61,249 nucleotides of DNA, filler included, from Basidioascus undulatus (GCA_000826855.1; 3 parts of 3 records of this genome joined end to end with filler, not necessarily neighbours in it), one strand, 5' to 3'. Counted from the first letter of the whole stretch, positions 20,426 through 59,146 are shown. Notes: a model not told the origin generated them from the sequence alone. Numbers and translations: made by a program.

Positions 20426-20525
20426 NNNNNNNNNNNNNNNNNNNNNNNNNNNNNNNNNNNNNNNNNNNNTTAATTAATTAANNNNNNNNNNNNNNNNNNN
20501 NNNNNNNNNNNNNNNNNNNNNNNNN
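20426..20525. other. Artificial contig spacer N44-TTAATTAATTAA-N44
   Basis: 100-bp gap with a stop-in-all-frames linker, identical to the second gap. Confidence 0.97.
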
Positions 20526-20669: not shown

Positions 20670-22732
20670 ATGGGGATGGATCCGTCTGCCGCGGCCACTA
20701 TTGCGGCCACAGTGCTGGGTGGGGTGGCATTCATCATAGCTACGTTGCAGCTCGCGCAGAGTCTTCTTTCATCGTCGGCGGACCTGAGGAAGTGCAACGG
20801 GGACGTCTATGGCTCGCTCGCGTATGAGGGGACCAGGACCCGCTTCCGGTGGCCCTGGCGGGACCCCTTGGGTAGCCATGCGGGCTGGAGGGTTCTTCAC
20901 CGGAGCTTCAGGTTTGAGGTCCGCTACCAAGCCCCGCATATCACGTACACCGTCACCGCACGACGCTGCGGCAGCAAGGGCGCCCTGCTCGCGCCCATGG
21001 AGAAGCATCCGTGGAGGGTGGCCCAGTGGTACGACCTGATAGAGGTGGCAGGCACGCTCGGAGTGTCCTCCGACATGGCGGTGACCTGGCTCAACTCTTC
21101 GATAGACTCGTTCCCCTCCGGAGGGACGTCCCTGTGGTACCTGCCCGCATCTCTATCAGGTTCCTCATGGCGGTAGCCGTTTCTCAGGGTCTTGACTGCA
21201 TAGGGTTCGACTGGCACGCAGGGTGCGTATCGTTTGTGGGACAGGCCTCGATGCAGTCAGTGGAGCACCCTATCCTGGGTACTGTGGTCCACTACTACCC
21301 CCGTGTGGACGTTGGTGTCGGTGACTACGACAGTTGGTGCGGGTTTGAGACAGAGGCGATGCCTGATCTCGATGAACCCAAGCTAGGTCACCTCCTCATA
21401 GGGCAGGTTGCCAAGTACCTGGGGAGCTCGTTGCCTAGCGCCGCTGCTGCCCTGGACAAGGACGCCGTTGACAGATGGGTGGCGTGTGTAACGCTGGGGT
21501 CGTCATCCATGTCGTCCTCTCCCAAGTTCGTTCCTGTCATTTCGATGTTCGGGTCCAGGACAGACGCACTGGCTGCGTTCCATGGGGTCTGTGTGTGCGT
21601 GTTTGGGGACGAGGGCTTCAGGCGGCTGAGCCACAGGACGACGGTTGTGAGCTCTATGCAAGTTCTCCACCCCTGGGCACCCGGGATGCTGGAGCTTATG
21701 GAAAAGGACCAGGTCATGGAGCTGAGGAACGAACTTATGCGCGTCAATGACGAGTCCAACGAGGCAGGGATCATAGTCTGTCTCGCATGCGCCATGGCGG
21801 CACATTTGAGCCCAAGGCCACTGCGCTACCTCAGCGTCATCATATGCACTGCGTCCGAGGCGGACATAGGTGTTGCCTTTGCAAAGAGCTGGGAGAGGCA
21901 CCTGAGGCTTCTGGTGCCCATACTCGGGGCCTTGGCTAGCGGTAGTGCTGGACTCTCCTCCAGGACAAGGACGAGTGAGCAAGGCCCTAAGGCCTGGGAG
22001 TACTACCTGACCCGGTGGCGCTCTCACGTGAGTAGCAATTCTCAACAGCCTGCTACTGCACTGTCCGGAAGTACGGTGCCCAGTGAGCACTCAGTTGCTG
22101 ACAGGGCCCTCGCCTGCGCTATCCGCGGTGCCATCATGTCCCTCAAATGGCACTATTGCTCCGACAGGGGAGACGCCAAGATCGAGCTCCCCCCTGAGAC
22201 GCCATGGTTTGGTCTGTTGATTCCCGCCGCACCCCTACCGGCACCACTCCACAGCGGGCCCGCGAGCCCAGCGACCTACACACCCCCCACTGACCCCACC
22301 CACCCACTAACCCACCAACCAGACCTGTACAGCACCGCTCCCCACAACCCCTGGTACTCACAATGGTGTACCCCCTTCCCAAAAACCCAACCACCAACCA
22401 CGCGTGCTCCAACGCACACCGAATCCTGCAGCGAGCTTGCGAGCGGAGCGGTGAGGTGTCCTCACTTCACTAACCCATCAACTCATCTACCACTAACTGA
22501 GGTGACAAATGAACTACTGAGTACGGACTCGCGCGTCCTGACATTCCCCACTTACTGGGTCCCCTCATTGCCTAACCTAGGGGCCCGCCAGCGGGCCTTC
22601 CCGCATCCTGGGGACCACAGTAACCAGTCCCCCACAGTATCCTCCAGTACCCACCCACGCGCACCTGTCGCGCGTGCCTCGGAAAGTGGAGGGCCAGGTC
22701 AGGTTGCGTTAGGTCTTTACCGGTTCCCTTGA
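20670..22732 (+). pseudogene. Intronless modin-like membrane protein with a frameshift near 21111-21126
   Basis: N-terminal TM helix followed by LQLAQ...KC...FRFEVRYQAPHI, WYDLI, SIDSFP; similarity continues in another frame (DVPVVPARISIRFLMAVAVSQGL). Family assignment is from recalled modin-like motifs. Confidence 0.5.
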
Positions 22733-23071: not shown

Positions 23072-23554
23072 AGGTTTCGTTTGTTTTCAATTGTTTGAAG
23101 TTTTGTCATTGTTTTCCAAACAAACAACTCAATAAAGATATCCATCACCCTGATACATCAATACCCAATGTGATCATAGACACCCGTGACCTAACCGTCA
23201 CTGTCATCCAACCTAACCCTAACACCAGTCGTTACCCTAGCCCGACACTTCACCCTGACACACCTGACCCTGGCCAACGATACAGCATAGTCCTAGTCCC
23301 GTTAATACCTCGGGATGGCTCCAGACACCCTTAACTCTCAACTACCTGACCTAACTGGCCTACTGTTACGACCCAGCCGGCACCCCGCTAGCCCAGCCTG
23401 GCTGTGCCTGACCTGACCTGACGTGAGGTACATAGTGCACGCTTGCCTGACTGGTGCAATGTCTAGGGGGGGGTGGGGGTCGGTACCTCGGCATTGCATC
23501 TACAATGTGCTGGGGCGGACCTGAGTGTGTACTGGGGGTGTGGCCTATCAAGAC

Positions 23555-24045
23555 GCGAGACGCGCCCCATTGGGCACCCTTACTTCATTTACTCGTTGGG
23601 TGTTGACACCTACCCGTGGGGCGGTGATGGAAGGAGGGGGCTCGGCATGCCTCGCGTTGGTACTCGGGACACAGGGCGCGCACTATGGTGTGCCCTTACT
23701 TTAACTCGCCGAACGTTAGGGCTACCCGTGGGACACGAATGGAGGGAGGGGAGGTTGGTATACCCTGTGTCGCTACCTGAGGTGCGAGACGTGCCCTATT
23801 GGGCGCCCTTACTTCATCGACGCATTAGGTGTTGGTGTCACTCGTGGGACAGCAACGGAGGGGAGGGACTTAACGGGTCTTGGGTTGGTGCTCGTGGTGC
23901 GGGACACGCCCTGAGGGGCGCCCTTACTTTGGGGGTGACGGGGAGTGCACAACTAGGGGGTTGTGCGGGCATGGATGCACTTGGAAAGCTCGAAGCGTGG
24001 GCACACCCGGACATCGCGCTTATCCCACTAGGGTCGCGCCTTACA
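23555..24045. repeat. Degenerate tandem repeat with about 115-bp period (core CCCTTACTT), 4-5 copies
   Basis: Cores start at 23577, 23693, 23806 and 23921, with a partial one near 24038; copies 1/3 and 2/4 are pairwise more similar. Confidence 0.8.
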
Positions 24046-24698
24046 GCAGGGACCGGCAAGTCAGTGGTAGTCACGTACGACCCCTCAATCCTCGAGCTGT
24101 TGAACTCGAGTAGCGACGTGGCCGCCTTCGATAGTGTCGTGGCAGCGAAGTGGCATGCAAGGGCACTACTGCCCCCGGGGATGACTAACGGGCGAGCTTT
24201 GCAGGCTCATCCTTGCCTGCGACGGCTACTCGTTGAGGTCCTCCAACTTCCCTAAGGTAGACGACTCTGCGGTAGTGGCCGCGTGGAGGAAGATAGGGAC
24301 ACTCAGTAAGGTACTGACTTTCGCCCACGTGGTTTTGGTGCTCGCCTGGCCCATTCCCGCTCCTGTATCCCTTCCTCTCGCCCGCTAGCAGCCCTCCTCG
24401 CTCCTGTACTCTACTCCTCCTGTTGCCCATTAGCGGCGTCGCAAGCAGAGCTCTTAACGCCTAACCTAGCCACTTCGACGACGCCGCTCCCTCACGCAGA
24501 CAATAATCTCGCGTGCACACCGAGGCCCTGAGCCTCTGCGTCGACTTACCAATGACACCTTGCCACCTTCTTGGCTCGTCCTGGAGGGCTTTCTTCCTTT
24601 CGCTCAAGTTTTTCACTTCGCCTCTCCCCCCCTCTCTCTCCCGCATGTACTCGCAGCCTGCCAGCGGCGTTGACCATAGAGCTCTTAATGCCTAACGC

Positions 24699-26529
24699 TC
24701 AACCCAGCACCATCCTCTCCACCACCCCCCACGCCCGCTCGCCCGCCTCCGCCTGAAACTCCGCCACCTTGCTCACTACATCGGCCCAGTTAGCCGCCGC
24801 GGGCGTGATCTTGCCCAAAACCACGGGCAAGCGCGAGTCGACGTGCTGAGGCACGATGACGGTCCGGCCGAGGACGCACTCGGCGCCGAGGAGGGCGAAC
24901 GAGATGGCTTCTTTGGCGGATGAGGGGATGCCAAGTTCTGTGTGCGAGGAGGGAGGGGCAGGGTGATTGAGATGAGCGAGGTTAAAGGAGAGAGTGCGGA
25001 TGAAGGACCGTCAAGCTGGGCGATGCGCGTGCCCGGCAGTTGGGAGGCGATGTAGTCGACCAGAGCGGGGTTGAATCCGCCACCGCCGCAGAGGTACTGC
25101 ATAGCCCCAACTCCAAATCAGTCCCGATTCGCTCCTGACCCCCTCGTCACGGTCGACCTAGTCACAGCCGGGAAAAAGAAAGCAGGAGGGAAAAAAACGC
25201 ACGAGCTCGTCTAGCGCCGGATGGCTGGGCAACGTCTCATGCGGAGGCAAATACCGGAGGTAGGCCTCGTGGATAGACTGCGCTGTGATCCGGGTTAGAG
25301 TTGCGACGATGTCTTCCTTGGCCAGGCCCTTAGCGAGCCCGCGCTGGATGAGCTGGTGCGCGAAGGCGTCACCGAAGAGTTCGCGGCCTACGATGGTTAG
25401 GGTTGTCGTCAGTCGCAAACGATGGGAGAAGAGGGCACGACTTGGACGCACCAGTCGTCTTCGGCAGCTTACCCGAGAAGTACTCCATCCCCAGCACCTC
25501 CTTTACCATCTCCTCATCCACCTTTCCCTTCTTGGCCCACTCGCCGTCGCGGTCGTACTGCATTTGGCCGTTGGTGAAGTACCGCATGGCGGCATCCATC
25601 CAGACGTTGCCCGGTCCCGTGTCGAACTCGAACACGTCGAGGGGCGAGGAGGAGGGCACGTAGGAGACATTGCCGATGCCGCCGCTGGTTGGGTTGGCAT
25701 ACAAGGTTGATCAGTAGAGAGAGCAAGGAAAGCACGTTGGAAAGGTGGAAGACGGGCCAGACGCACATGTTTTGGATCCCCCGGCTGAGGGTATCGTGCC
25801 GTGCGAGGAGGGCGTCCATGAACGCGACAAGCGGAGCGCCGTGGCGGCCTGCGGAGACTTCGCCCGTGCGGAAGTCTGACACAACGGTTCGGCCGAGGGC
25901 GATGCTGAGCTCTGTCGATTCCTGTGCCACACGTACAAATCACAAAGAAAACACGCGGTGAGCAAAAACGCACGCATCCAAGGAGGACGGAGGGGAGAAG
26001 GAGAAAAGCGAGCAGAACGAACCATCATCTGGAGCGTCGACCGGAGCTGGTCGCCCTGCGGAAGCGGAATGTGCCACATCGTCTGGCCGTGCGAGGCGAC
26101 GATGTCGACGTCTGCCCAGTCGATATTCTGGGAGGCGGCGAATGCGAGGGCGGCACTGGCGAAGACCTGCCGGTGCGCAGAGTGAAGTGAGGTTAGCATG
26201 AGCAGCAGGATGAGGCGCACCTTCCCGATCAAGGAGCCCATCTGCGAAGTAGCAGGATGAGATCAAGACACACACTGTGCGGTATCCCTGGACGAGAAGC
26301 GCAAGCTGGAACGCACCTGGCAAACCTCCTCCAAGCTCGTCTGGTTGCTCTCAATCATACTGAGGATCCGCTGCTTCGCCTCCTGCGGCACCGGTTGCTC
26401 AGCGTACTTGAGCAGTTTAAACTCGAGCGGGGACGAGGGCGAGGCCTGCTTGATGGAGCAGAAGGCGCAGTCGATGCCGTCGACCGAGGTGCCGCAGTTG
26501 AGGCCGAGGACGGTGAGTTGGAGAGGCAT
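24699..26529 (-). CDS. Anhydro-sugar kinase of the AnmK/levoglucosan kinase family; 8 exons
   Basis: Spliced motifs [66 protein letters not shown] and VLGKITP. Confidence 0.93.
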
Positions 26530-27371
26530 GAGGATGGCAGATTACTGTAGCTAGTGGGGATGGTGATTGGTGCAAGAAAAAGTGCGAACCCAGCAAGAAA
26601 AAGTGCGAACCCAGCAAGAAAAAGGGCAGGTATGAAGCGGAGATGACTGGCGGCAAAGCGACCCGTCTTGGCCGAGTTAATCAACCTGGCACCCGGACAC
26701 CGGACGCTACACGAGTTCCCGGCCCGACACACCGCCCGCTTTGCCACCACCAATTGGAAACCGGAAGATAAGTGCGGTATAAGCGGCGAGAGCGCAGGTG
26801 AGCAGTGGCAGAAAGGGGTATAGGAGATCAGGGGGGTTGGGTGGCGCGACGACGCCGTCGACATGTCGGGGAATAAGCGTTGGGAGGTTGACAGCCCGGC
26901 TGGAGAGATGATGGTCGCGGAAAACTAGGCGCGAGGGCGCCCTCCGCGCTGGCACTCGAGACAGCGTAGCCAGCCGGCAAGCCGGGCTGCCGGGCCGCTG
27001 TCGATCGATGGAATGCTCTCATCAACTGCCCCCTGGCGAGCATACGTCTCACAAACCGCGGCGCGCTGGCTAAAGCGGCGACTCTGCCGGTCGCTGTTCT
27101 GCTCAGTTTACCCAGTATGCGTGTCTCCTCCTCGCCACGGAGCACGAGTGCCTTATCGGCGGGCCGACAATCTCCCCCCTCCTCTCTATCTAGACTCCAC
27201 TCCTTAAAGTCCCCTCTTCCCGTTCTGCTTGCCCACGCACCGCACCGCTTACCCGCGCCTGCGCACACGACCTCGCCACGCTCCCTGCTCCCCTCGGACA
27301 GACTTCGTCTTTCTCTTACATTCAATCCACCACTAGATCACCTCAGTATTCCCCCAGACCCCTTCGACACC
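26530..27371. promoter_or_regulatory. Bidirectional promoter between the kinase and the transporter
   Basis: Divergent ATGs at 26529 and 27372; many CGG/CCG triplets; includes a 21-bp tandem repeat. Confidence 0.7.
26572..26624. repeat. 21-bp tandem repeat GCAAGAAAAAGTGCGAACCCA x2.5 in the kinase leader
   Basis: Read directly from the sequence. Confidence 0.9.
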
Positions 27372-30005
27372 ATGGGCATGGACGCTATCCGCAACAGCTG
27401 GAGGACGTAAGTCTCTTTGCTGACCAGTTACGGTGACTTTATCATCTCACCACCTCGCCCTCTCGCGCTCTCATTCTCTCTCACACAGGCCGATTTGGCA
27501 GAGCTTGCTCGTAGGCATGGTCCTTTTCTGCTGTCCGGGTAACTTTCTAACCCATCATCTACGTTTCCTCGTACGGCTACCTAACCTCCTCCACCCCGCG
27601 TAAAAAAGGCATGTTCAACGCAATTGTAGGGTGCATTTCACCTCCGGTCTATGCGCCGGACCCTCCCTTCTAATCACTGTCGTTCAACGCGACAACCAGA
27701 ACGGAATGGGTGCACATCCTTCACTTCGAATTTTCCCCCGAAACATCTCTGATCCTATCCGCGCCCCCATGCACCCCCACGCACTCCACAGGCGCTGGTG
27801 GCTCCGCAGCCTCCAACACCTCGCTCGTCGCCAAGGGCAACAGCGCGCTCTATGCGTGCTTTGCGATCGTCGGCCTGTTTTCGGGCTCGGTTGTGAACAC
27901 GGTCGGGCCGAGGATTTGTCTTAGCCTGTACGTGTTTTGGCCGTGTCACACTCTAACCTTCTCGATCGTGGCGTTGCAGACGCAATGCTGACGTGTGGAT
28001 GGTATTGGATTGGTCGGCAGCGGCGGATTCGGCTACGCGCTCTACATTGGCAGCCTGTGGTCGCTCGACCGGGGCGGGCCGCAGGGCTTCGTCATTGGCG
28101 CCGGTGCGGTGCTTGGTGTCACAGCTGCATTGCTTTGTGAGTTGATGTTTAGCTACGCTTGATGAAGAAGTGAGCCTGATAATTCTGACTTTCGTTCTGC
28201 TTCGGGTGAAAGGGTGCGCCCAAGGTGTTGTTGTGATGGCCTACCCGACCGAGAAGGAGCGCTCGCGCCACTTTGCCTACCAGGTGCGCGCTACTGTTCA
28301 TTGCCCTTCCCCCCTTTTCCGGTCTCTTTTCAAGCCCCTGAAGCTGAGGGATCACCCGCGCCACAGTGGTCCATGCTCGGCGTGGGTGCCGCGATCGGCG
28401 GCCTGATCCCTCTCGCGCAGACAGTGCGGTCGGGTGGGACGGACGCGGTGAGTACATCGTCGTACATCGCGTTCTTCATTATTGTGTGCATCGGTGCGTC
28501 CTTTCTTTTCCACTCACCCACGCCACTCCGTGCACGTCGGCTCATATCCCTTTTTCATCGTTTCTTGTCTGGATCAGGCATCGCGCTCTCCTTCCTGCTC
28601 TCCAACCCAACCGATGTCCACCGCAAGGACGGCACCCCGGTCCAGGTCGCGGCGAGCCTGGCGTTCAGGGACGAGATTGTCAACATCTTCAGGCTGCTCA
28701 AGGACAAGAAGATCCTCCTGCTCACACCCTCGTTTTTGGCATCCAACTGGGTGAGTTCTGTGGCACGCTTACTTTCGTGCAGGCGACTGAGTGGATGTGG
28801 GCGCTGACATGGTGGTGTTGGGATGGTAGTTCTATGCGTACCAGTTCGGCATGAACGGCTTCTACTTTTCACTCCGATCGCGCAGTCTCAACTCGATGAT
28901 GTACTGGTGCGTGTGACCCCTTTCCCTTCCACTCTTCCGCTCCGAGTCAAAGGTTAGTTGAGTTACGTTCTCTGACCTTTCCTCGGCTCTTGGCTGTACA
29001 AACCAAAGGCTCACCCAGGTTGTCGGCACCTTCGGCATATCCGCCATCCTCGACTACAAGAACCTCCGTCGGCGGACTCGCGGTCTGATCGGGCTTGGGT
29101 GCGTTTGCATTCCCCTTCCTTTGCTTTTCGCTTTGGCGATCTATACTCATTCTCACTCTGCGCCGCCTGCACAGCGTCGTCACCACCTTTGTGACTGTCA
29201 CCTGGTGCGGCGGCCTCGCATTTCAGCTCACCTTCACGCGCGAAACGCCCTCGCCTCAGAAGGACTGGGCAGATGAGGGCTGGGCGGGCCCGTTCGTGCT
29301 TTACTTTAGTGAGTTCTGCCCTGTCGCTCGAGGCGATCATCCCCTGGAGAGGATATAAACTAACCCTATGACTAACTTGTAACTTTCAGTGTACGGAATG
29401 GCGGACGCGATGTTCCAATCTTACTGCTACTGGTAAGGATCTCTGCCTCTGTATGGCCTTAGCTTCGAGTCGGCCGACCTTCCCCTCTTCCACGACCAGG
29501 ATCATGTCAGCGTGCACCAATGACCCTCAGCGCCTCGCGCGCTACGGCGGTTGGTATAAAGGCATTCAGTCTGTACGTTTAACGCTCTCGTTGCCTCGCC
29601 GGATTCCGTGCTTACCCACGCATCCGAAATTACAGGCTGGCGCCGCCGTCAGCTTCGGCATCAATGCCGTCCAGATCCCCTTCATAGCCGAGTACGTCCC
29701 TTTTTCCTCCTCTCCACCCTCTTCCGTCCCTCTCATGTGCACCTCCACTCAAACGTTCTCCTCTCCCCGGCCGGTCCGTCAGGCTTGGAATCTGTTTCGG
29801 CCTTCAAGTCGCCTCCATCCCCCTTATGCTCATTGTCGCTCTCGGCGTCACCGACACGAACTACGGCCTCGAGGACCTCGTCGTTCCGCCCTCGGATCTT
29901 GTTGAGGCCGCTGGCAAGGCCGCGGTGTACAATTCGAACGCGACTTTGAGCTGCGAGATTGAAGAGGACGACACAAAGGAGAAGATCGGGCTTAGGGCGT
30001 CGTGA
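27372..30005 (+). CDS. NGT1: UNC-93-like (DUF895) MFS transporter, NGT1/NOPE1-like putative GlcNAc-type transporter; about 16 exons
   Basis: FCCP|GMFNAI|NGM|GAGG, GYALYIGS, CAQG..MAYP.E, FLASNW|FYAYQF, QSYCYW|IM...ND...LARYGGWYKGIQS|AGAAVSF. The substrate is inferred from family and neighbours. Confidence 0.85.
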
Positions 30006-31227
30006 GGGTCGTGACGGTCGTTTGAGGGGTTGTTTGATGACGGATGTCTCGAGATTGCCTCTTTGAGGATAAAATGCATTTCGATTTGGATAATAAGTAC
30101 CATATTCAGATTTATGGAAGTGAGATTAACAGGCAAAGTGAGCAAGCCAAATTGGGAAGGGAATTCGGCAGGAGGACCACACAGCAGGAAAGAGGTAGCC
30201 TTCTCGGATCACCGCATGCTGACACGCCGAGTTCCAACCGCTCCCTCGACCTCACCTCCAGTCATCTCCACGGCTCATACGCCCCCATTTCCGTCTTACC
30301 CTCTACGTGACCACAGCACTAGCTTCTTCACCTAGGCCCCCACTTCCATCGAGCGCCCCAGCGAAGCGGGCGTCGTTCCTACTCGGCGCGCCGGACGTGG
30401 GGAAGAAGGCGCTTGCCCCTAGGCGGACAAATGAAGTGAACTTAAACGTAATGTCAGACAGGCTCAATCACCATAAGCAGCGGCCGATGTTACGCACACA
30501 AGTCTGCAGCAGCAGCGCAGAGACATTTCCGTGTCGAGGGGAACTGGGTCTGAGCCAGAAACTGCGCTACTGGTCGGAGTTCGACTGGTAATGGCCTTGG
30601 ATATTGTCATTGATATGGCTGGATGAAACCTGGCGAAGCTGCACTGAATGGCGGCGACAGGTAGAAGGCGTACAAGAGGTAGGTGCCTCCTGTTTTCCCG
30701 GTTCGGCTAGCCACCGGACACCCTGCTCATTCTGCGGCCTCAAGGCATCAACGCACTGCGCCAAAAAAAATCGCAGCCGCCGGCCTCACTTACGACTGCA
30801 ATTCCTCGCATTGTCGCACTCACAGTCTTGTGTACAGTCCACTTGCGTTGCACTGGCGCCAAAGTTCGAACTTCGAACTCTATTACACTCGCACGGCTTT
30901 GCAAAGACGGGATCGACAGCTGGACGTCTGTGAGAACTAGTGTAGACTGCGGCTGGTTGACCCGAACGGCCATGACAGATTCGCGCCAATCAGCGCAAGT
31001 GCACGAGGTCACCACTGCACATCCCGTCGTTGGCTTGCCTCGTCGTCTGTCCCTCGTTGGCTGTTCCGCCTCGGCTGTTTCTTTGCCAGACATTCTCGAG
31101 TATGTATACCGATTCTCCCCATTTTATAGACAAGGCGGAAGCACATAGCGGCTAAAGTACAATAGGCTTGGCCACATCAGCGCGCGTATGATGAAGAGGG
31201 GGAAGAATGGAACACTCGGAACAGTGC

Positions 31228-33725
31228 TCATTGTGAATGGACATGCGGAGGCTGAGGAGAATTACTGGATGTTCGGATGGCAGATAGATCCGCTCAGCCG
31301 GGTGAAGAGCGAGGGCGAGCTAAGCAGGGCTCACAAAAGGGCATCTAGGAAGGCAGGAGGCCACTGCATGGGAACCTCGGCGTTCGCTTCGACCGACGGG
31401 CGAGCCTCGTTTTGCGCGGCTTGTCCTCCCTGCTGGGGCCAAGAGAAGAGGCCAAGCAAGTTTGAGACGTCGAGCGAGTGTGGGTTGAGCTTCGGCGGGA
31501 AGACCGCAGTCGTTCCTCTGGGTGCAGAGGGGGCGGATGGAAAATCAAAATCAAACGGGGCAACTGAGGGGACCACGACGTTGATGTCGGTCCCGATAGG
31601 CGCGCAAGTCGACCGAGAAGGCAAGAGCGGACGGAGCCGGGCGATAAGTCTCCCCCAGACGTCGTGCATCGATCTTGGCTGCTGCTGAATCAAGTCGAAG
31701 AGCTGCGTGCAGAGATCTAGGCGAGCTGTCGGTGTGCGAGAATTCCACTTGCGTGCGTAAGGGGGCAGGCAAAATCGACCGCGAAGGAGTCTGTGAGCAC
31801 ACTTACATTGGTCTTCGCCGCCTCCGAAGTTTTCCAACAGTCGTTGTACCGCGAGTTCTACCATCTGTTTGAGAAAGACTGGTGAGACGAGCACAGGAGA
31901 GGGAATGCTCATGAGGCAACGGCAACCTACCTCGGTCCAGAAAGGCGTGGGCGAACGGAATGCGAAGCTTACTTCCTCGTCGTGGACCACACTGCGTACT
32001 AGCGCGAAGGCGGCGTCGAAGCCTGCGGGAGATGCTGCGTAGCCGGTCCCGCCGACGACGATGCTGAGGAACAGGCGGAAACCTTGATAGTAGAGGAGCA
32101 GGACCTTCATTGGCCAGGTACCGGTGGAAGAGCCTGTTGGGCCGCAATTCAGCAGCGGTCGTGAGCGGAAGAAGGTAACAAGAAAGATAAAGGCTCACCG
32201 GACAGCTTGCAGGTCGACCGTGCGAACCAAGCGTCAGCGTCCACGGCCGCCGAGTTGACGGCGATGACGTCTCCCTCTTCAGCCCCTCCGATCCCTGCGT
32301 CCGACACGTTACGCAGACGACGCTGAGCGCCTCGGAGGCAAGCGCTCGAGAGTCGCTGAAGCGTGAAACTCGCGAGCATAGACAGCTCTGCGAGCGCCGA
32401 GGTGAGGCCGGACGCTCGTTGGAGAGGCAGCCGGTCGGAAGGAGCGAAGACCTCAGGAGTGGGTGCGGTGCAAGATAACATGCTGTAATGCGTGTCGACG
32501 ATCTGAGGTGAAATGAAGTCAATGACTGTCGCGATCTCAAATAGCTGGGGCTAGCCCACAAAACGCACGAGGATGAGACTTGCTGCAGCCCTTAGCTCGT
32601 CGCTCGTTCCCAGCAGCATCAAGTCCGCCGCAACCCTTCGCGCCATCGAGCACAGTCCCGACCCGCGACCGTTTCCGACGAGGTCTTTGCCGCCCTCGAG
32701 AAACGCGGCCCCAACGCATAGCCCTATGAGGTCGTCGATCGAGGACGCGTGCGCGCCGCCGGTCCTCGGGTGGATGAGCTGAAGGCAGGCGGCGTCGAAG
32801 AGGGTGACGCAGCGCGGATGTAGCGCTTGTAACGATGGCTCAGGGTGGTGAATAGATGCGGCAGCGAAGACGGACGCGAGCAGGAGAGGCGATTTTGCAG
32901 AGGGGCGAGGTATTGAGTAGCCGAAGAAAAATGGGGCGAGCGAAGCGTAAAAACTGGCAAATGCATTGAGCTCATGCGTGCTGCCGAGTCATAAATAAAT
33001 GTCTCTTACAAATCTACGAGAGAATCCAGCTCATTAGGCGCGAGCCTCGCTTCCCCTGCAAAATGGCGCTGCCAGTCGGCCTCAGGCTGTCGCCCTCCAG
33101 CGACGGACGGGTCCATGGCGGACACGTCAGAAGGTGTACGCTTCATTAGCGGGTAAGACGACTCGCAAGCGCTCGAAGGCTCGAAGCACATCTCGGCGGT
33201 CGTCATGGAGGAGTTTGAGTGAGATGGGGAGTTTCGGGGCCGGGTGTACGGAGACGGTGGTTCGCGCGCCGCGAGTGCGCTGACAACCGACTCGACGGCG
33301 GTGGTAAGGCGTTCTAGCCTACTTTCGACCTGTTAGGTGAAATAAATGAGTCTCTCTGCTTTGCGGAAGCAGGTTAGGCGCACATTGGACTGCCAAGCAG
33401 TGTCATACGAGGTGGCGGCCTGTGAAATTTGCAGGCGTAAGATTAGCCAGCCGAGACTGTCACAAGTGCAGCGAAACTAATTTTCGCCACTGACATTCGA
33501 TCGCTCACGAAAGAGACACTCTGCCCCATTGGTCTGGCACCTCTCGCACGGCGGGTTATCACCGCCGATGCATCTGGCTTTCTGTTTACGGCAGTTCACT
33601 GGGTGGATCGTCAGCAGTAGGCGCCCGGAAACACTGCGTCAGACGACAAACACACAGCACGCGCGCGAGATCCGCGCTGAGCCTTTGCGCTTCTTGCTCC
33701 CGGAGTCTGATTCATCGAGGTCCAT
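31228..33725 (-). CDS. Zn(II)2Cys6 transcription factor with a fungal middle-homology region
   Basis: Spliced N-terminus MDLDESDSGSKKRKGSARISRAC|LNCRKQKARCIGGDNPPCERCQTNGAECLF, then a coiled coil (VESRLERL), SPLLLASV and SIDDLIGLCVGAAFL. The last exon is less certain. Confidence 0.88.
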
Positions 33726-35279
33726 AAGAGATTGCGAGAGAGCGTGAGGTGGACGAGCCTGTTAAAGAGCTCAAGACGATGAGGGTCAGGACCTGGAAAA
33801 CGAAGGCCCACGGCGGCCCCAACCGCTTGTAGGGCCGCGCGGCCCGACGGGTCATGAGATATCCCGGGCTTGGGTGTGCCTCTCGGAAGTTGCGCGGCAG
33901 GTTATTTGCATGTTATCCCGTGTGTGAGACAACCTTGAAGAGACAGGCGACAGGTTCAGCGGGCAAATCTCCGGTTTGCCGCATGGACGACGGCTAGAGA
34001 CGGCAATGCACCGTCCGTTTATCATGCTGATACCGCTAAGCGTCCTTGGCTCGGCACACTGGACGGGCGATTGAAGCACACAGGGGACATCTCCCAAAAC
34101 CCAAAATCTGGGGTTATCTTTCCTTCAAGGGAGGATACCCGATGTTGCGTGCGCGAGCCGAAAGAGTCCAACTTCCCCTTGAGAGCGACTCGACGCAGTC
34201 TTCTCGTCTGGAGACTTTGCCTATGGCGTCGATGGTGTGCTGCTCGAAGCTGGTCAATGTTTTTCGCTCATCACCCGCAGCCGCCATCTCACCCGATTTC
34301 CACAGCGCTCACGGGGCACGCGACAGGCTCTGTGGCTTCGTAGCGAATGCTCAGCCTGGCTCTCTTGCAAAATGACGCCCGAGAATTAAACTCAGAGAAC
34401 ACTCTGGTAAAGATGATTTAAGAGGCGTCCTACTTCCTCGAATGAGGATGCAAGTCATTACGGCGCAGATATCGCCGGCATCGGGGAGCGAGAATGGGAA
34501 GAGAACTGATCGTCCCGAAGGAGCCTCGGCTTCTACCCCCGTTAGAGACTCCACCGACCCGCATCGACAAATAATTTCACATGGACTGATGAGATACTAT
34601 GTTCGAAAGTGGCTGGCCATCGGACGAGCAGCTCATTGTGAGCTGCTGCCCTCGAGCGAGCTATACTGCGTTCGTCTTCCATGCACTTGCCTTCCATCGC
34701 TCTTTGACACGTTCTTGAGATACCAACACATGCTGCTGGCTACTCTGCTCCACACTCATCGCTGCGCGCAGAGGGTCCTCCCACTGATCGCTTTCGTCGT
34801 TCGTATTCGACAAGCTGCAGCGCGCCTCTTTATGGTCACTTTACGATCCCTATCACAGCCTTATTGAGCATTCTCATAACCCTCTGAGCACTTCGGCGGA
34901 GTTCAGCATTTGCTTTTCACAAGACCCTTTCCAATGTTAGCGTCCGATCATTCTGTCGTTCATGGTACGCACCAGCTGAATGAGGCTCCGAGATGTAGTG
35001 CGGAGACTTGATTGCCCTCATGCCCACCAGCGGGGCTGCGAGACCGACATCCACTCCTAACGTTAGGCGATATTGTGAGAGACACAGTTAGCCAAGCGCA
35101 GCGGGAGAAGCGTTGTGTGATTTCCAGGCGGTGAGGTCCGAGCGTTCGACCTCTGACACCTTTCGTAACCAACGCGTCGCAGAGGCCAACGGAAATTGCA
35201 AAAGGCAGCAGAGTCGCAGAGGCAGGCTGAGTGTTGTAGAGAAGCGCGCATGCATGTCTATTGAAAGATTCAAGTGGGA

Positions 35280-37210
35280 TCACAGGCCACGGTCCGCGCG
35301 CCAGACCTCTATTCCAGCGACCCATGTAGCCAGGACCTCGCTCGAGTCCTTGTCGAGCACGACAAGGTCAGCGTCCGCCCCTGCCGATAGATGACCCTTG
35401 CGCGCCGCGACCTCGGGGCCGAGCGACTTGGCCGCATTGCTCGTGGCACATACGAGCGCCTGGGCCAGAGAGATCGACGCGAACTTGACGAGATTTCGAA
35501 CGCATGTGGGCATTGTGACGACACTGCAAAAAGAAAGGCAGGTCAACGACGTCGACAGACGAGATGACGCCCGCGAGGGCGACTAACCTGCCCGCGAGCG
35601 TATCGGTGCCTTGGAGTGTCAGGCGCTGACCACTCTTATCAACCTTCCTGCCGTCCCATTCGTATTGGCCGTCGGGTTGGTCGGGGTCCAACATAGACAT
35701 GGCTATGGTGGCCAACGAAGCTCATCAACACGTTACGAAAGTGAAGAGAGGTGGACTTTGCTCACCGTCCGTGACGAGTACGCAGCCTCCCGGGTGACTC
35801 GAGTAGGCCATGCTGAGCGCGCTCGGGTGGCAGTGAATGCCGTCGGCGATGATACCATAGTACGGCCGCAAGAAGGGGAGCTCGTTCTGCGCGAGCAGGC
35901 GCTGGAGCTGCTCGTCCTGTGGTCGGAAGCGTGCCATCGTGGCCTGGCGAAGCTTGACAATGTCGGTAGCGTCGAGGACGGGTGTAATACCAAGGAGGCC
36001 GATGATCCCGGGCTCACGGTGATGGAGCTGAAGCAGTTCGAAAGTCAGAGGCGAAGCGGGATGCGCATGAAGGGAAGGAGACGCACCTGAGGCATTGCGT
36101 TGAAGAGGTGGGTGATCAGCGTCGCGCCAGACAGAACGGCGGCCACTGCGATGGCCGATGTTGAAGTGCTGCGCGAGACTAAGCTTGAGTTCTCTTTCGG
36201 CGGGGATATGCGAGACGAGCGGCGCACCTGTGCCCTAGCGAGACGGTAACCCCATGCTTGACGAGCTCTGGGATACTCTCTAGCATGCCGTCGACCTCGG
36301 GGGCGAGGGTGAGGAGTTTGACGCCGACGTTGTCGGCGGTGCTCGTGACGACGGCGCCGAGGATCTCGTCGACAGACTGGAAGCTCTTCGGAGCGGAGAC
36401 GAGGACATTGGGGCTGTGGCAACCGTGTTTGCTGGGGGAGATGAAGGGGCCTATTGGACAACAAAAATAAAGATTAGATTCACTCTTGGGCAACGTTCGG
36501 GATGCGTAGACAAACCTTCCGCATGCCAGCCGAGAATGTTGGCTGACTTCGGGAAGGAGCGCTGGCGAAGCAGAGGAAGGACTTGTGGGTAGAGGGTAGT
36601 CTCGTGAGACTGCCACAACGGCGGTCAGCCGGTGCACTCGAGTTTAACGACCGAGATGACAAACGATAATTGTCGGAAGGAAGCTACGGGGAGAAAATTG
36701 AGCGCTCACACGCTGGATTACTCCTCACAAACGCGGAGCTCACCTAGTCACGCCGGTCTCGACCAACTTGCCCGCAACGGTCCGCAACCCCGCCTCGTAG
36801 GCAGCCTCGTCCCCATTGAACTCGCTGAAGTCGACACCGAATGCCCCGTTCAGCTGGATGTCGATCAGGCCGGGTGAGAGGATGTGGCCTTGGAGGTCGA
36901 TGACGTGCGTGGGGCGCCCGCGCGACGCGTAGAATGTCTGTTGCGGGTTGAGGATGCGCCCAGTTGTGGGGTCAACCCAGAGGTCTGCAACCTTGAGCGT
37001 GCCGTCCGGCATCGCGAGACTGCCCTTTGTGAACTGGATGATCGGATTCTCGTCCACCGCGTTGATCGAGGAGGCCGGAGTGACGTTGGCGGTTGGCGTG
37101 AGGTGAGGGGAGTTCATGGCGGAGTTGGCAGGCGAGGTGGTGCAGGAGGACTCTGCCGACGCGAGGGCGTCCGAGGTCAACGCTGAGTAAGGCTCCGGCA
37201 TGGCAAGCAT
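35280..37210 (-). CDS. nagA: N-acetylglucosamine-6-phosphate deacetylase
   Basis: PGLIDIQLNGAFGVDF, GWHAE|GPF, TLAPE, SLGH, THLFNAM, IADGIH, VTD, LAG and GADADLVV. Confidence 0.95.
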
Positions 37211-37714
37211 CGTGTGTGTGAGTGTGAGCGGGAAGGCGAGAGAAGCAGCTTGACCGACTTTTTGTTCATCGCGAGGCAAACGTAGGTGTCCGGGCCCAAC
37301 GCCCAACCGGCTCACTGGCCGCTCACAGGCGATCCTAAGGATTGTGAATAGGACTGGCGGCCGACCAGACGCCGGCTGCGTACGTGAAAAGACGCTGTGG
37401 GAGGCCGAAGAATTCTCGCGGCGAGTGCGCACGGCGAAGGGGACCGGCACATTCGGCGGTTTCGCCGCTTTAACTCTCTTGCTCTTCTCTCCCGCAATAC
37501 CGGCACAACCTCCGCCCCCCGCCGCTCAGGCGTACATGTTCATGCTCGCTACTCGAGCCGCATGTCCGGCGCATGTCCCGACTGTGGCTGCCTGAGTTAG
37601 CCGACCTTCAAGTTTACCTTTTATCACATCGTCCCTTCTTCGCTTCTGCCTTCTTAGCATCGTCCCCACCACCTCTCACAACCTCGCTCATCTCAATTGT
37701 CGCGTCCGCTTGTT
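37211..37714. promoter_or_regulatory. Bidirectional nagA/nagB promoter
   Basis: Divergent starts 504 bp apart; CGG-rich. Confidence 0.7.
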
Positions 37715-38870
37715 ATGCGCATTATCATTCGCGAAACCGCCGCCGACGTGGGCCTATACACGGCGACCTATATCGCCCGCCGCATCAAGGAGTTTGCGCC
37801 TACTCCGGACCGCCCCTTCCTCCTCGGTTTGCCAACCGGATCGAGCCCGATTCCGACATACCGGCACCTCATCGCGCTCCACCGGAAAGGGATTGTCTCT
37901 TTCCGAAATGTCGTGACCTTCAACATGTGAGCTTGTTTTGGACGTGCTTGGAGGAGGTCATAGTAAACGCCGCGCGTTTCGGCAGGGACGAATACATCGG
38001 TCTTGAGGAGAACCACCCGCAAAGGCGAGCGCTCTTATCGTCAGATGAGAGGTCTCATGCGGCCTACTGATCTGTTCCCGCTCAAAAGTTATCATACCTT
38101 CATGTTCGAGAACTTCTTCCAGCACAGCAAGCCCACTTTCGCGTTGAGTCCATCGCCCGCTGCTTGCTGACACGTCAACTCTTGCCCGCAGTCGACATTC
38201 CCCGCGAGAACGTCCACATCCTCAACGGCTGTGCCACCGACCTGGTCGCCGAGTGTCTAGCCTATGAGAAGACAATCAAATCATTGGGCGGGATCGAGCT
38301 GTTCCTTGGCGGCTGCGGCTCGGATGGCCACCTCGCGTTTAACGAGTCCGGGAGCTCGCTCGCGAGTCGGACACGCATCAAGACGCTTGCGCACGAGACG
38401 ATAATTGCCAACAGCCGGTTTTTCGAAGGAGGGGTGGACGAGGTGCCGCGCATGGCGCTCACAGTGGGCGTCGCAACGGTAATGGAAGCGAGGGAGGTCG
38501 TTATTCTCATTACGGGGAGCGCGAAGGCGCTGGCGCTGTCGAAATGTGTTGAGGAGGGCGTGAACCACCTGGTGCGTCCAAACACTATTGCTTTCGGTCT
38601 CGGTCTCGGCCTCGGTCTCGGTCTCTCATGCCTTCCGCGCCCAACAGTGTACCGTGTCGGCAATCCAGCTTCATCCCTCGGCGATGGTGGTATGCGATGC
38701 TCCCGCCACTGGCGAGCTTCGCGTAAAGACCGTGGAGTATTTCAAAAGTGTGAGCACGCCCGATCTGTCTGCACTGGCCTCCATAAATGAAGAAACGGGT
38801 CCTGCAGATCGAGATGGTGCAGGCGGAAGTGGAGCGCGCGCGGGATGCCGCTGGGTTGAAGAGGGTGTGA
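37715..38870 (+). CDS. nagB: Glucosamine-6-phosphate deaminase
   Basis: [52 protein letters not shown] and [10 protein letters not shown]. Confidence 0.96.
38594..38626. repeat. Hexamer microsatellite (TCGGTC)n in a nagB intron
   Basis: tcggtctcggtctcggcctcggtctcggtctc. Confidence 0.85.
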
Positions 38871-39144
38871 GGCTCCTGGCTTTTATCTGCTGTACATGTC
38901 GTGCGCGTTGCATTGCTTTCACTTCGCACCATCCAAAAGCTCAAGTGGCGTGCACGCTCTGTAATACAATCATTTGAACCCGGTCAGCATATGTTTGAGC
39001 CAGAGACATCAGCCGATGCAAGTCTATGACGGATGCGACTTTGTTTAACCCTAATTTACGTCCCTAGTGGGCACAAAAGTACAGGCAGAGCAGACAACAG
39101 GAGGGTGGCACAGTAACTAAATGGGGATCCATCGGGGCATGGAT

Positions 39145-40837
39145 TCAGTGGGGGCTTAAGCTTGATGGCGTTCGCTTTTGCGACGGAGGGCGGTAAGGGG
39201 GTAGCACAGTCAGGATGGGGTTGATCATGAGGTCTATTTTAATTTTGTTCTTGCAGAGCAGATTGGTCTGAAATGTCTTGAGCCCCTCCTGTTGAGGGAG
39301 GACCCTGTCTACAACCTCTGGAGATGGCGTCCTATTGCCGACGGTGGCGAACGTGTGGCAGTCCTTGAGCACACGGAAACCAAGCTGGTCCATGGCCGCC
39401 CGAAAGCACGGAGCGTACGATGCTGCCACCAGACAGTCGACATTGGATGCACCCACGTAGGAATAGTTGAAGATGTGTGAGAGCGAGAAAGGGGCTGTTG
39501 CCAGGTTGCCCTTGAGCTGACGCAGTGGAACGAAACCTGTGACATCGATTCGCTTCATACTCCCAAGTGCGCTCTGTGCGTGTTAGGTGCTCCTCTGGCT
39601 CTCCGCTTCCAAGGAGAGTCGGGCGACGGGGAGGGCGCAAGGCCAAGGGCACGAGACAGCTCGGCTTTATCCTGGTTGGTATTGCGCGAAGCAATGTCTG
39701 CAAACGACCAGCCGAGCCGACATCCCTGCAGCAGGCGTAACACGGTTAGCGTTGCGAGTCAGTTGTAACGCGGACATTCCGCGGTCAGCCTTGCTGCACA
39801 CGCACGTTCCCTCAGTTTACTTTGATACAGTCTCCCTTTCTCTTGCCTTTCCTTTGAAGTAGCTCCCCTTTGTCTTGCCTATTTTTGTTCTTGCCTGCCT
39901 TTGTTCCAAAGTTCTATAGATTTCCCCGTCTAGCTCTAGCTCGAATAAAAAGGCCTCAGCAGCCTTAGCCAAGGTTCTAGCCCAGTTCTCGTTCCCTATC
40001 CAAGAGACAGGAGACGGGGCTCGAAGGAGAGGGGGAACCACCTTTGAGGGAGCTCAGTCTGGGTGTCTCCTAGGCACTTGCTTCACGCAGAACACGGCCA
40101 ATACCTGAAATCCCTCTCTGCGCCTCAAGGGTTGCATAGATGTCGCCATCCTGACGCGTCCATATCCTTATCGTCTGTATCAGACGACTCACTGGACTGC
40201 GGCTCCTCCATCGATGTGCGGCGTGTCCATCCCCCCTCTGCAATGGCCAGCATAGGAGGCACCCCAAAGCCGGCTGAGCAGCGCTTGCGCCAGCGCGACT
40301 TCTTCGGCTGGTGACGGCCTACGCATTGGAAGCGACGTGTGCTGTTAGCTGAAGATTGCGTCGTCAGTGTGCCCGTAGAGCAGCAAGAACCGCAAGCGAG
40401 TTCGTAACGATGGTCCTGACAACAGCTTTTCAGCTGTCGACCGGTCCTGTTCCGTAACACCTTGGATGAGAAGGCCCTGGGGTACCCCTCGATTTTGGGG
40501 CCCGCGGGGCCGAAGAGAAGACATGAGGGAAGGGGGGGCAAGGGCGGAGGGTGAGGGTTAAATCAAAGGGAGCGGGAAAGGACCAAAAGCATCAGGGAGG
40601 GGAGAAAAAGCGAAAAGGAGAGGGGGAAAGCGGTGGGAGGGGAGGGACGGCAGTGGGAGGGTGGTAAGGAAGGAGGAAAGCGAAGCCGAGGTAAAGTTAG
40701 GAGAGGAAGGGAGGAGATTGGATATGGTAAAAAGGCAATAGCGTGGTGTAAAAAAACGATATAGGATGGGTTGGTTTAGGGTAGTAAAGCGAGACAGAAG
40801 GAGGGAGGGGTAGAGAGGCGGGGTAGGACAGACAAGA
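39145..40837 (-). mobile_element. Possible transposon or retroelement relic at the contig end
   Basis: Intronless fragmentary ORFs (39145..39558 resembles fungal retroelement ORF1-like proteins as recalled) and a purine-rich low-complexity end; no RT or transposase motif seen. Confidence 0.3.
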
Positions 40838-40937
40838 NNNNNNNNNNNNNNNNNNNNNNNNNNNNNNNNNNNNNNNNNNNNTTAATTAATTAANNNNNNN
40901 NNNNNNNNNNNNNNNNNNNNNNNNNNNNNNNNNNNNN
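40838..40937. other. Artificial contig spacer N44-TTAATTAATTAA-N44
   Basis: Same structure as the first gap. Confidence 0.97.
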
Positions 40938-43440: not shown

Positions 43441-44853
43441 ATGTCAGCGCAATTCAACGCGCAGCTTCAATCGCTCCCCGATCCGCCGGGGACGCGTCCG
43501 CCGCTCTCGGCGTACTCCCGCCCGGTCGGGACGTCGTTCCTCCTGCACTCGGGGCTCTCCGTGGGCGCATGGGCTCTCGGGTACGCGACCGGCCGCGCGG
43601 AGGCGAAGGACTGGCTCTGGCCGAGCGGGATGGTCGCCAACGCGTGGCTGCAGGGCGTCGTCATCCCCGCTGCGAAGGCGGATATTCCCATTAGCGCGGC
43701 GTGGGCGGAACTCGGTTGGCGTCAGAAGTTGGTTGTACGTTCTCTGTCTGCTTCTGTTGTTTGAGGCTCTCCCGTGCTCACGAGGGCGAGCGACGTAACA
43801 GCTCACCGGCGCGACGGCCTGGGGCCTCCGCCTCTTCTACCGGATCGCCTCGCGGGCGCTGCGTCGGGGTAAGGACGACCCGCGCTACGAGGAGGCCAAG
43901 ACTTCGGACCCGCACTTCTGGCGCAACGCGCTCCTGACGCAGTACCTCCCCGAGGCGACCATCCAGACGCTCATCACCCTGCCGTTCACCGCGCCGTTCC
44001 GCGTCGGCCGCGAGTGCCTCGGCTACGACGCGCCCTGGACCGGAATCGACAACCTCGCCGTCGGCCTGCTCAGCGCCGGTCTCACGCTCGAGGTTATGGC
44101 TGATGCGCAGGTTGAGCGTCACAAACGCCTGGGCGACCATGGCGTACGTCTGCGTTCCCGCGGTCTGTGATGTTCTCCTGCTGACCTCTCTTGTCGCGCT
44201 ATTTCAGCTTGTCCGCAACGGCGTCTGGTCCATCGTCCGCCACCCGAAGTAGTTCCCAATCTCGGAGTGCTCATCTACTTCATCGTCGACTAACTGATCG
44301 TGCTTTCACAGCTACCTCGCCGACGCCCTGGTGCACCTCTCCTTCCCGCTCCTCCTCCTCCCCACGCCCGCTTTCCACCCGATCCTCTTCCTCGGCCCGA
44401 TCGCCAACTACTTCTTCCTGCGGTGGGGGTACCTCTATAGCACCATCTGCTCAGCCCGAAACTCACTCTACGTCCCATAACCTGCACAGTTTCATCGGCG
44501 GCGACAAGGAGAACGAGGTATGTCTCGAGCTCTGCCTCCCCATTTTACCTTTCTCTCTGCTCATGCTTACTCGAATTTCCTTGCTCGCAGGCAACGCAAG
44601 AGAAGCGCTACGCTGAGAAGGACGACCTCAAGCTCGCGGAGCTGAAGACGTACCAGCGCACCAAGAACAGCTTCTGGCCGGGCGTTTCGGAGCTTGCGTT
44701 CGTCTCTTTCACCTTGAATCTTTTATGCTCAGACACTGATGTCGCCATCTTTCTCGCAGCAACGTCTGGACCTGGGTCATCATCGGTTCCGGCGGCGCAG
44801 GCGTCGTCCTGGAGCGCATTGCGCGGGCGTACGCCGCACCGCGGGTTCTCTGA
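43441..44853 (+). CDS. DUF1295 / steroid 5-alpha-reductase-like membrane protein
   Basis: KDWLWPSG, WGLRLFYRI...DDPRY, ADAQ, GVWSIVRHP|YL, FIGGDKENE and NSFWP. Confidence 0.85.
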
Positions 44854-49824: not shown

Positions 49825-50210
49825 TTTGCCCACTCTTCACCCACCGATAAATCCATTCACCGCATAGCGCGCACCCAACACTCTCCCCGCCTCCCTCGGA
49901 TTAGTCGCCTTCGTCGTCTTTTCCACTCCCACCCTTTACCCCCGCCCCTCAAAGCCCTTTCCTCGCTACAGGGAGCGAGGAACCCCCACCCGACTGACGG
50001 CCTAAACGAGCGAGCCGCCGACAAGGCACTCGCCCCAGCAGGCTAAGACCAGCGTCAACCCGAACTTCTCCCTTGACGGGGACACCCACCGCGCGCACAA
50101 CACAACACCCGACCGCCGCCATAGCAGCAGCACGCCACTCGCCTCCATCCTACCACTCCCTGCACGCTTCTCGACCCGTCGATTCCTTCCACGCCCCCGC
50201 TTCCACCGCC

Positions 50211-58459: not shown

Positions 58460-59146
58460 CCAAGTCCCCTGACCTACGCATCGGCGGACACCCTGAAGCG
58501 AACATGCATTTCAACACATTCACCCAGGTAACGGTTGAATTACATGTAAGCAGAATAGATAACCTTGCGAATTGTGCGAAACTTGGACAGAAGCAGTGGG
58601 TCGCATGGCAAATTTTACATCCGAACGTCATTCCACGCCGGGCCATCACAAAACTCATGCAATTCTTGATCATTGCGAAACCTGCGCACGTTACATGACA
58701 GTGGACGTAAAAAAGATGAGAGCGAAGAATCGTAAAGCTGGGGCGGGGCAACGAAGAAGGAAATTGCAGCTGCAGCGATGCTCGACGAGCTCAGTGTCCG
58801 GTGTCCATGCGTGCGTGTGGGTGCGAGGTGAAACGTGGGTGGATCGAGATGAACAGTGACTATAATGGGTTGGGATGGGGAAGGGACAAGCAAGGCAACT
58901 GGAGGCGCGAGCTCAGGCGAAACATGCGCTGGCGCGGGGAGATGGGGAGGGTGTTACAGAAACCGCGATGACGAAAGCGAAACAAAGTATCGAAAAAGTA
59001 GATGGAGATGACGAAGAAGACAATGGGGCCGTTCCGCGAAGAAATGACGTCCATCAATCAGGAGCTAGAACAATGTGGGGAGAATAGGAAACGAAACAAC
59101 AATCGCACTTCGTGAACGACGAAGCAACAGAAAGAGGGGAAACAAC

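Follow-up and report, generated by a model that had tools for sequence, protein, structure and literature searches.

In bacterial recycling of 1,6-anhydro-N-acetylmuramic acid (anhMurNAc), the kinase AnmK acts first and is followed by MurQ, NagA and NagB. Levoglucosan kinase (LGK) is, to our knowledge, the only enzyme of the AnmK/LGK family that has been studied in depth. In filamentous ascomycetes, the Ndt80-like RON1 is common. Fungal N-acetylglucosamine (GlcNAc) clusters consist of NGT1, HXK1/hxk3, DAC1 and NAG1/dam1, often joined by RON1 and nag3, as described for Candida albicans and Trichoderma reesei (PMC4950302); the hexokinase gene is reported to lie beside DAC1 in the ascomycete clusters of that paper and likewise in the Cryptococcus cluster (PMC10218983). 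We analysed a 61-kb stretch of Basidioascus undulatus DNA (the whole of it is called the window below, and coordinates are counted from its first letter), which holds at 24699..38870 a cluster of amino-sugar genes that includes a kinase of the AnmK/LGK family.

The cluster is composed of five intact, intron-rich genes with the following coding sequences (CDS):

24699-26529, minus strand: AnmK/LGK-family anhydro-sugar kinase (PF03702), 8 exons, 7 introns, 425 amino acids (aa)
27372-30005, plus strand: permease of the major facilitator superfamily (MFS), UNC-93/NGT1 type (PF05978), many short exons including microexons
31331-33725, minus strand: Zn2Cys6 transcription factor, zinc-cluster motif split by an intron
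35280-37210, minus strand: nagA/DAC1, GlcNAc-6-phosphate deacetylase (Amidohydro_1, TIGR00221)
37715-38870, plus strand: nagB/NAG1, glucosamine-6-phosphate deaminase (Glucosamine_iso, TIGR00502)

An earlier note on this DNA had claimed these five genes, their strands and their intactness, and all of this is borne out by the gene models and profile matches. The gene identities that it gave were also right (evidence from PF03702, from PF05978 via the homologue P0221, and from PF00172, TIGR00221 and TIGR00502), and its outer coordinates coincide with the stop codons of the kinase gene (24699) and nagB (38870). The kinase and permease genes are arranged head to head with their start codons 842 bp apart, as are nagA and nagB (504 bp), and the second pair lies about 8 kb beyond the first. 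The locus resembles the fungal GlcNAc clusters in the linked DAC1/nagA and NAG1/nagB genes, a permease that is Ngt1-like at the family level (PF05978), the presence of a transcription factor and the tight clustering. It differs from them in that no hexokinase-type GlcNAc kinase, Ndt80-like RON1 or GH3-type nag3 was found in the window, which contains a Zn2Cys6 factor and the AnmK/LGK-family kinase instead. The linkage of an anhydro-sugar kinase with NagA and NagB is shared with bacterial anhMurNAc recycling, and the same kinase chemistry would be expected, whereas no MurQ, NagZ or NamZ accompanies the genes here, which belong to a eukaryote and include one for an NGT1-type permease.

The reading that we favour, tentatively and at rather less than an even chance, is that the locus is a variant fungal GlcNAc-type catabolic cluster in which the AnmK/LGK-family kinase is a working member, converting an anhydro-hexosamine to GlcNAc-6-phosphate (GlcNAc-6-P). 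The permease would import a 1,6-anhydro-hexosamine, most simply 1,6-anhydro-GlcNAc, and the kinase would open the 1,6-anhydro ring with a water molecule activated by its conserved Asp and transfer a phosphate to O6, which would yield GlcNAc-6-P. NagA would remove the acetyl group from GlcNAc-6-P and NagB would then give fructose-6-phosphate and ammonia. The product of an AnmK/LGK-family enzyme from anhydro-GlcNAc would be exactly the substrate of NagA. Both the anhydro-hexosamine substrate and the feeding of NagA by the kinase are what we infer for this locus. It is doubtful, though conceivable, that the five genes form a complete eukaryotic anhydro-amino-sugar route, from import by the NGT1-family permease through the kinase, DAC1 and NAG1 to fructose-6-phosphate, under a dedicated Zn2Cys6 regulator; chitin that has been burnt, or transglycosylated in some other way, is one source that could supply the anhydro-GlcNAc. 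Such a route would provide the fungal AnmK-like family, which is large and little understood, with a physiological substrate besides levoglucosan.

If fungi are able to channel anhydro amino sugars directly into the catabolism of GlcNAc-6-P, this would add a step to chitin turnover and to fire-derived carbon and nitrogen cycling, and would provide an enzyme for upgrading pyrolysed chitin. If they are not, the locus is an ordinary GlcNAc cluster neighboured by a levoglucosan kinase. With such a kinase standing where the GlcNAc pathway normally has its hexokinase, the locus offers a concrete and cheap way into this question.

The idea of an anhydro-amino-sugar substrate for fungal AnmK-like kinases is probably not new. 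Dai et al. 2015, a computational paper, reportedly proposed anhydro-GlcNAc or anhydro-glucosamine (anhydro-GlcN) as substrates of these kinases; it is reported to have used docking and phylogeny, not linkage to nagA, nagB or an NGT1-type gene. The earlier note knew of no described fungal pathway of this kind. As regards the substrate, this should be toned down in view of that computational proposal; the linkage of an AnmK/LGK-type kinase with nagA, nagB and an NGT1-type gene appears to be new. Full-text literature searches returned no assayed anhydro-GlcNAc kinase and no report tying an AnmK-type gene to fungal nagA/nagB or to a GlcNAc cluster. Two seeming precedents were rejected: the 'anhydro-GlcNAc kinase' in PMC6925433 is an annotation label only, and the anhydro-GlcNAc term in PMC8229320 is a mass unit. 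The terms 'anhydro' and 'levoglucosan' are absent from Kappel 2016 and from the T. reesei sensing paper. Many fungi encode AnmK-type kinases according to PMC10570956, which has the 2015 computational paper among its references, and PMC9476349 describes fungal AnmK-like kinases as widespread, with several paralogues.

The kinase and its relatives

The kinase gene was rebuilt by hand from the minus-strand sequence, which gave the following model, including an intron in the 5' untranslated region (5'-UTR):

26529-26317, 26241-26221, 26166-26023 and 25921-25767, minus strand: kinase exons 1-4
25684-25452, 25387-25203, 25096-25009 and 24937-24699, minus strand: kinase exons 5-8
26551-26610, minus strand: kinase 5'-UTR intron (joint 26550->26611 in contigs of the public run X3, CT..AC ends)

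All seven coding introns have GT..AG ends and the stop codon is at 24699-24701. The microexon 26221-26241 adds 21 nt of coding sequence and was confirmed by the joints of run X3. A perfect 21-bp tandem repeat of 2.5 copies (26572-26624, detected by TRF) overlaps the 5'-UTR intron. PF03702 matched six of the seven open reading frame (ORF) pieces of the kinase, the best with 72 bits, and the NCBIfam AnmK models matched 4 of 4 kinase exons. The spliced product aligned over residues 3-410 with full-length members of the family, at identities of 48-50%. One of its four best full-length matches, P0004, is a close LGK orthologue and serves here as a stand-in for the Lipomyces LGK (E-value of 8.6e-207 between the two).

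Equivalents of LGK Asp26, Asp212 and Glu362 are all present in the kinase model aligned to LGK. According to PMC10570956, Asp212 (Asp182 of AnmK) is the general base, and Asp26 and Glu362 are metal ligands. Judged by these residues, the catalytic set of the window kinase is intact; the earlier note had called it an apparently intact family member, and the conservation of the general-base Asp and both metal ligands upholds this. An AnmK-fold enzyme phosphorylating free GlcNAc would be a direct replacement of the hexokinase, and the gene does occupy the kinase position of a cluster in a window where no hexokinase was found. The full ring-opening catalytic set is kept, however, including the general-base Asp, and no family member is known to act on non-anhydro sugars; we regard such an activity as highly improbable.

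Exons 3, 4 and 5 each had Lipomyces starkeyi levoglucosan kinase (PDB 4yh5, 4zlu and others) as the best match among solved structures, and the E-value of exon 5 was 2.5e-20 for the LGK structure versus 3.4e-13 or weaker for the bacterial AnmK structures. A 65-row tree from a quick maximum-likelihood search places the window kinase within a 35-row clade of all eukaryote-like LGK-type sequences with a support of 99 in the Shimodaira-Hasegawa-like approximate likelihood ratio test (SH-aLRT). It is the first branch of this clade, with the remaining 34 rows as its sister group (support 89), and lies outside the 28-row group that holds P0004 (support 99). The enzyme is like L. starkeyi LGK in its family, in its fold class as predicted by sequence, in the equivalents of Asp26, Asp212 and Glu362 and in its eukaryotic clade, and unlike it in the identity of about 48% to the orthologue P0004 and in branching before the LGK group proper. 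Its position outside the tight group with the Lipomyces LGK orthologue leaves room for a different substrate.

Nearly as likely as the catabolic role that we favour is an ordinary levoglucosan kinase that is a mere neighbour of a GlcNAc cluster, with the hexokinase encoded elsewhere. The placement of the kinase within the fungal LGK-type clade agrees with this, as do the identities of 46-50% to the four best full-length matches, P0004 included, and the retention of 64 of 74 alignment columns without variation among the remaining 34 sequences of the clade. GlcNAc genes are, moreover, not always fully clustered; those of A. fumigatus A1163 are reported as non-clustered (PMC12584764). A levoglucosan kinase is harder to reconcile with the head-to-head arrangement with the cluster's only transporter gene, an NGT1-type and not a hexose-type one, and with the failure to find a hexokinase in 61 kb. 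The chance adjacency of one of a few AnmK-like genes to a four-gene cluster would also be rare per genome (a rough estimate, not computed).

An HMMER search of 1.84 billion representatives gave 1899 relatives of kinase exon 5. The sole close one is P0222, an exon-sized fragment of 92 aa with 74% identity and the same exon borders, and the remaining relatives are at most 58% identical, except for a 117-aa fragment with 67% identity over part of the exon. A word-index search with the same exon yielded 173 candidates and no close orthologue among them. The deep branch and the lack of a characterised close relative would suit an enzyme for another 1,6-anhydro sugar or one with a role unrelated to its neighbours (for instance anhydro-GlcN or anhydro-mannose, or the terminal sugar of a product of cell-wall turnover), and the fungal family is reported to comprise several paralogue groups (PMC9476349). 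No positive evidence favours any particular alternative substrate, and we consider such a role improbable. The Rhodotorula toruloides enzyme, the only one of six with clear levoglucosan kinase activity in yeast extracts (PMC9476349), was read as LGK type proper from the DNA printed in the supplement of that paper. Basidiomycetes can thus have that type, and the lineage of the window kinase may be distinct from it.

Three sugar contacts of P. aeruginosa AnmK were taken from Table S2 of PMC10570956: Thr97 contacts the acetyl C=O of the sugar, Arg129 its lactyl ether and carboxylate, and Leu142/Val143 make backbone contacts to it. At the positions aligned with Arg129 and Leu142/Val143, LGK and the window kinase have the same residues, and Thr97, which no AnmK alignment spans, was tentatively assigned to the T of the HGQT motif common to both. 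Since these sugar-contact residues are kept alike in LGK and the window kinase, they do not tell the candidate substrates apart.

This bears also on the proposal that the kinase acts on 1,6-anhydro-MurNAc scavenged from bacterial walls, with an unlinked MurQ-type etherase supplying GlcNAc-6-P to NagA and NagB. In bacteria, the family is known for just this reaction, and fungal recycling of bacterial peptidoglycan is mentioned as a matter of speculation in PMC10570956. The lactyl-binding Arg of AnmK is kept in the window kinase, but it is kept in LGK as well and is therefore non-discriminating. The ORFs scanned in the window revealed no SIS, NamZ or GH3 domain and, by the E-values of exon 5, LGK resembles the kinase more than bacterial AnmK does; we consider the scavenging of anhMurNAc quite unlikely.

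Among the nearest non-fungal-type relatives is P0266, a protein of 957 aa, which suggests a fusion protein: its first ~384 residues form an AnmK-type domain that shares 43% identity with the window kinase.

Partner genes and the search for a hexokinase

The assignment of the two nag genes relies on profile matches. TIGR00221 matched four of four nagA exon pieces at the collinear profile positions 45-73, 133-197, 244-277 and 329-378, and TIGR00502 matched three of three nagB exon pieces. A single nagB exon shares 70-75% identity with the NagB proteins of many fungi, with those of agaricomycetes at the top and no near-identical match. The nagB product is collinear with residues 1-258 of P0101, and the last intron and the stop codon of the gene were located.

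The permease is collinear with residues 12-434 of the 459-aa P0221, annotated as 'MFS general substrate transporter' of Saitoella complicata. This was its only database match, with 45% identity over 128 aa. The short exons of the permease gene themselves gave no Pfam match; P0221 carries PF05978 (UNC-93) and PF07690, and the fungal Atlas neighbours of P0221 belong to the same two families. Candida Ngt1 is reported to carry PF05978 (bioRxiv 10.1101/2025.04.14.648653). The label 'NGT1-like', which the earlier note had given to the permease, consequently holds at the level of the family, through PF05978 in the homologue. In the contigs of run X3, 25 transcript letters fall between 27539 and 27791, which indicates one or two tiny permease exons.

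The regulator was recognised by Zn_clus (PF00172) on 33480-33599, the second part of its split motif (34 bits, E-value of 3e-8). A joint at 30953-31038 with CT..GC ends lies downstream of the regulator stop codon and reads on the minus strand as a GC..AG intron; it probably belongs to the 3' UTR of the regulator gene.

The search for a hexokinase covered the 308 stop-to-stop ORFs of at least 90 aa without masked letters, 248 of which were scanned with Pfam; most of the others lie within 24699..38870, where scanning was partial. Among the ORFs scanned in the 61-kb window, no hexokinase, ROK, SIS/MurQ, Ndt80, NamZ or GH3 domain was detected. Scanning 144 of the 158 shorter ORFs (45-89 aa) from the gaps and flanks of the cluster produced one sub-threshold match and nothing relevant. 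Six-frame motif scans of the window found no hexokinase or SIS signature and did find the AnmK motif used as the positive control; short exons can escape searches of these kinds. The claim of the earlier note that neither a hexokinase nor MurQ is recognisable is in agreement with both types of scan within the window.

Public runs and splicing

Three public runs hold this DNA. None of them is recorded as RNA, and neither the library type nor the growth conditions of X3 are recorded. Contigs of the two DNA runs (24406-26601 and 26595-39500) showed no differences from the window over the compared region 24000-39500; the window may itself derive from these runs, so that neither counts as independent support. 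The contigs of these two runs break only at the 21-bp tandem repeat at 26572-26624.

The contigs of X3 skip exactly the seven coding introns of the kinase gene as well as its 5'-UTR intron, and at least five introns of nagA. They also cover the permease gene (from 26913), the regulator gene (31335-31725) and nagB (from 37500). This is most simply explained if X3 is derived from cDNA, in which case transcription and splicing extend to all five genes; were X3 truly DNA, its contigs would represent intron-less copies. The 5'-UTR joint 26550->26611 bridges the repeat at which the DNA contigs break and thereby ties the kinase gene to the permease side. Gaps in X3 (e.g. 33823-35373) and its depth figures were not used as evidence.

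The outermost ends of the X3 contigs delimit two approximate promoter cores, the borders of which are derived from these ends and not from mapped transcription starts:

26714-26912, both directions: bidirectional kinase/permease promoter core, approximate, between the outermost transcript-contig ends
37441-37499, both directions: bidirectional nagA/nagB promoter core, approximate, between contig ends

The kinase contig extends at least 102 nt past 26611 and the permease contig begins at 26913, while in the other pair the contig of nagA extends to 37440 and that of nagB begins at 37500. The transcript-type contig ends are thus about 200 bp apart in the kinase/permease pair and about 60 bp apart in the nagA/nagB pair. 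The two bidirectional promoters have in common an 11-mer and two further 10-mers, and the 9-mer AAGCGGCGA is common to their cores. The genes of the cluster may be co-regulated; the shared motifs were considered as a sign of this and rejected, as all of them are within chance (see below), and they provide a lead only.

Gene context elsewhere and in the window

LGK-type kinases were encoded at 62 loci found by scanning metagenomes, all at most 50% identical to the window kinase; 24 of these loci are at least 10 kb long. Among 12 eukaryote-like loci, some of which are close kin of each other, a Pfam scan of 65 of the 152 listed flank ORFs found a Sugar_tr (PF00083) transporter near the kinase gene in five and Zn2Cys6 factors in three; an NGT1-type permease was found in none. 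The presence of Sugar_tr beside LGK-type genes indicates that their usual partner is a hexose-type transporter, unlike the window kinase, which adjoins amino-sugar genes. An amino-sugar setting is uncommon for kinases of this family and does not characterise the family as a whole.

Several findings weigh against the favoured reading of a working anhydro-hexosamine kinase. No homologue of nagA, nagB, the NGT1-type permease or the regulator was found in the flanks of any of the 62 metagenome loci; the linkage is absent from all these more distant LGK-type loci. The only close relative of the kinase, the fragment P0222, comes without genomic context. The motifs of the sugar site match those of LGK and there is no sequence mark of changed specificity. 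The permease is placed with NGT1 only at the level of the family, through its homologue, and a GlcNAc hexokinase may be encoded elsewhere in the genome, beyond the 61-kb window. We know of no natural supply of anhydro-GlcNAc besides pyrolysed chitin. Finally, the sequence elements common to the two promoters are within chance: sharing of an 11-mer or longer occurred in 104 of 400 random pairs of window segments (26%), three or more shared 10-mer blocks in 85 of 1000 random pairs (8.5%), and the core 9-mer AAGCGGCGA was matched by 263 of 3000 random pairs (8.8%). The lack of nag-gene linkage at the related loci and of a significant motif common to the two promoters also argues for the ordinary levoglucosan kinase described above.

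A first scan of public genome contigs gave no matches. In a second contig scan of the 80 nearest prokaryotic loci, three had nagA- or nagB-like neighbours. Two of the three were opened. In L102, a GKRP/SIS MurQ-like gene, NamZ and nagA accompany AnmK, and in L082 a GH3 gene, a BadF/BadG-type kinase gene and nagB lie beside it. These two loci fit peptidoglycan-recycling sets; the partners favour the anhMurNAc proposal as far as the family role is concerned, and the loci have no bearing on the fungal case.

The L102 locus (62-6056) was found on a contig labelled as a Bathyarchaeota metagenome-assembled genome, where the genes of a BadF/BadG-type kinase, the MurQ-like SIS protein, NamZ, nagA and AnmK all run in one direction. 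This set represents peptidoglycan-sugar recycling in a lineage without murein. An AnmK-type gene is also present on L074, a contig labelled Nitrososphaera. In a near-identical group of bacterial metagenome loci (L055:8718-12444 and L057:2992-6718), an AnmK-type gene lies between genes of the PIG-L family (N-acetylglucosaminyl-phosphatidylinositol de-N-acetylase type) and of asparagine synthase.

The window as a whole looks fungal, with 52-66% G+C and many short GT..AG introns. Its masked letters (N) form four short runs, all of them outside the cluster, which itself contains none. The runs, of 44 N each, occur in two pairs (20426-20525 and 40838-40937) with 12 bases within each pair; they flank the cluster about 20 kb apart and are presumably masked stretches. 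Repeat-rich DNA lies directly 3' of the kinase gene (23537-24696), beginning with a degenerate tandem array of four copies of about 115 bp (23537-23929). The 3' flank of the gene at 24663-24696 has a 34-nt copy at 24432-24465 with 79% identity. In the two DNA runs, the summed contig depth over 24000-24516 was 388 and 675, compared with 18 and 21-37 over most of the rest, with many loose ends, which suggests a multi-copy element.

No Pfam match was obtained for the long ORFs in the G+C-rich stretch at 11-18 kb or for a 604-aa ORF at 20918-22729. The genes that were recognised by Pfam in the window outside the cluster encode a CRAL/TRIO (Sec14-like) protein (2119-2757, minus strand), a DUF1295 protein (43799-44167, plus strand), an ornithine decarboxylase (50125-51984, plus strand) and a YTH-domain protein (59061-60406, minus strand).

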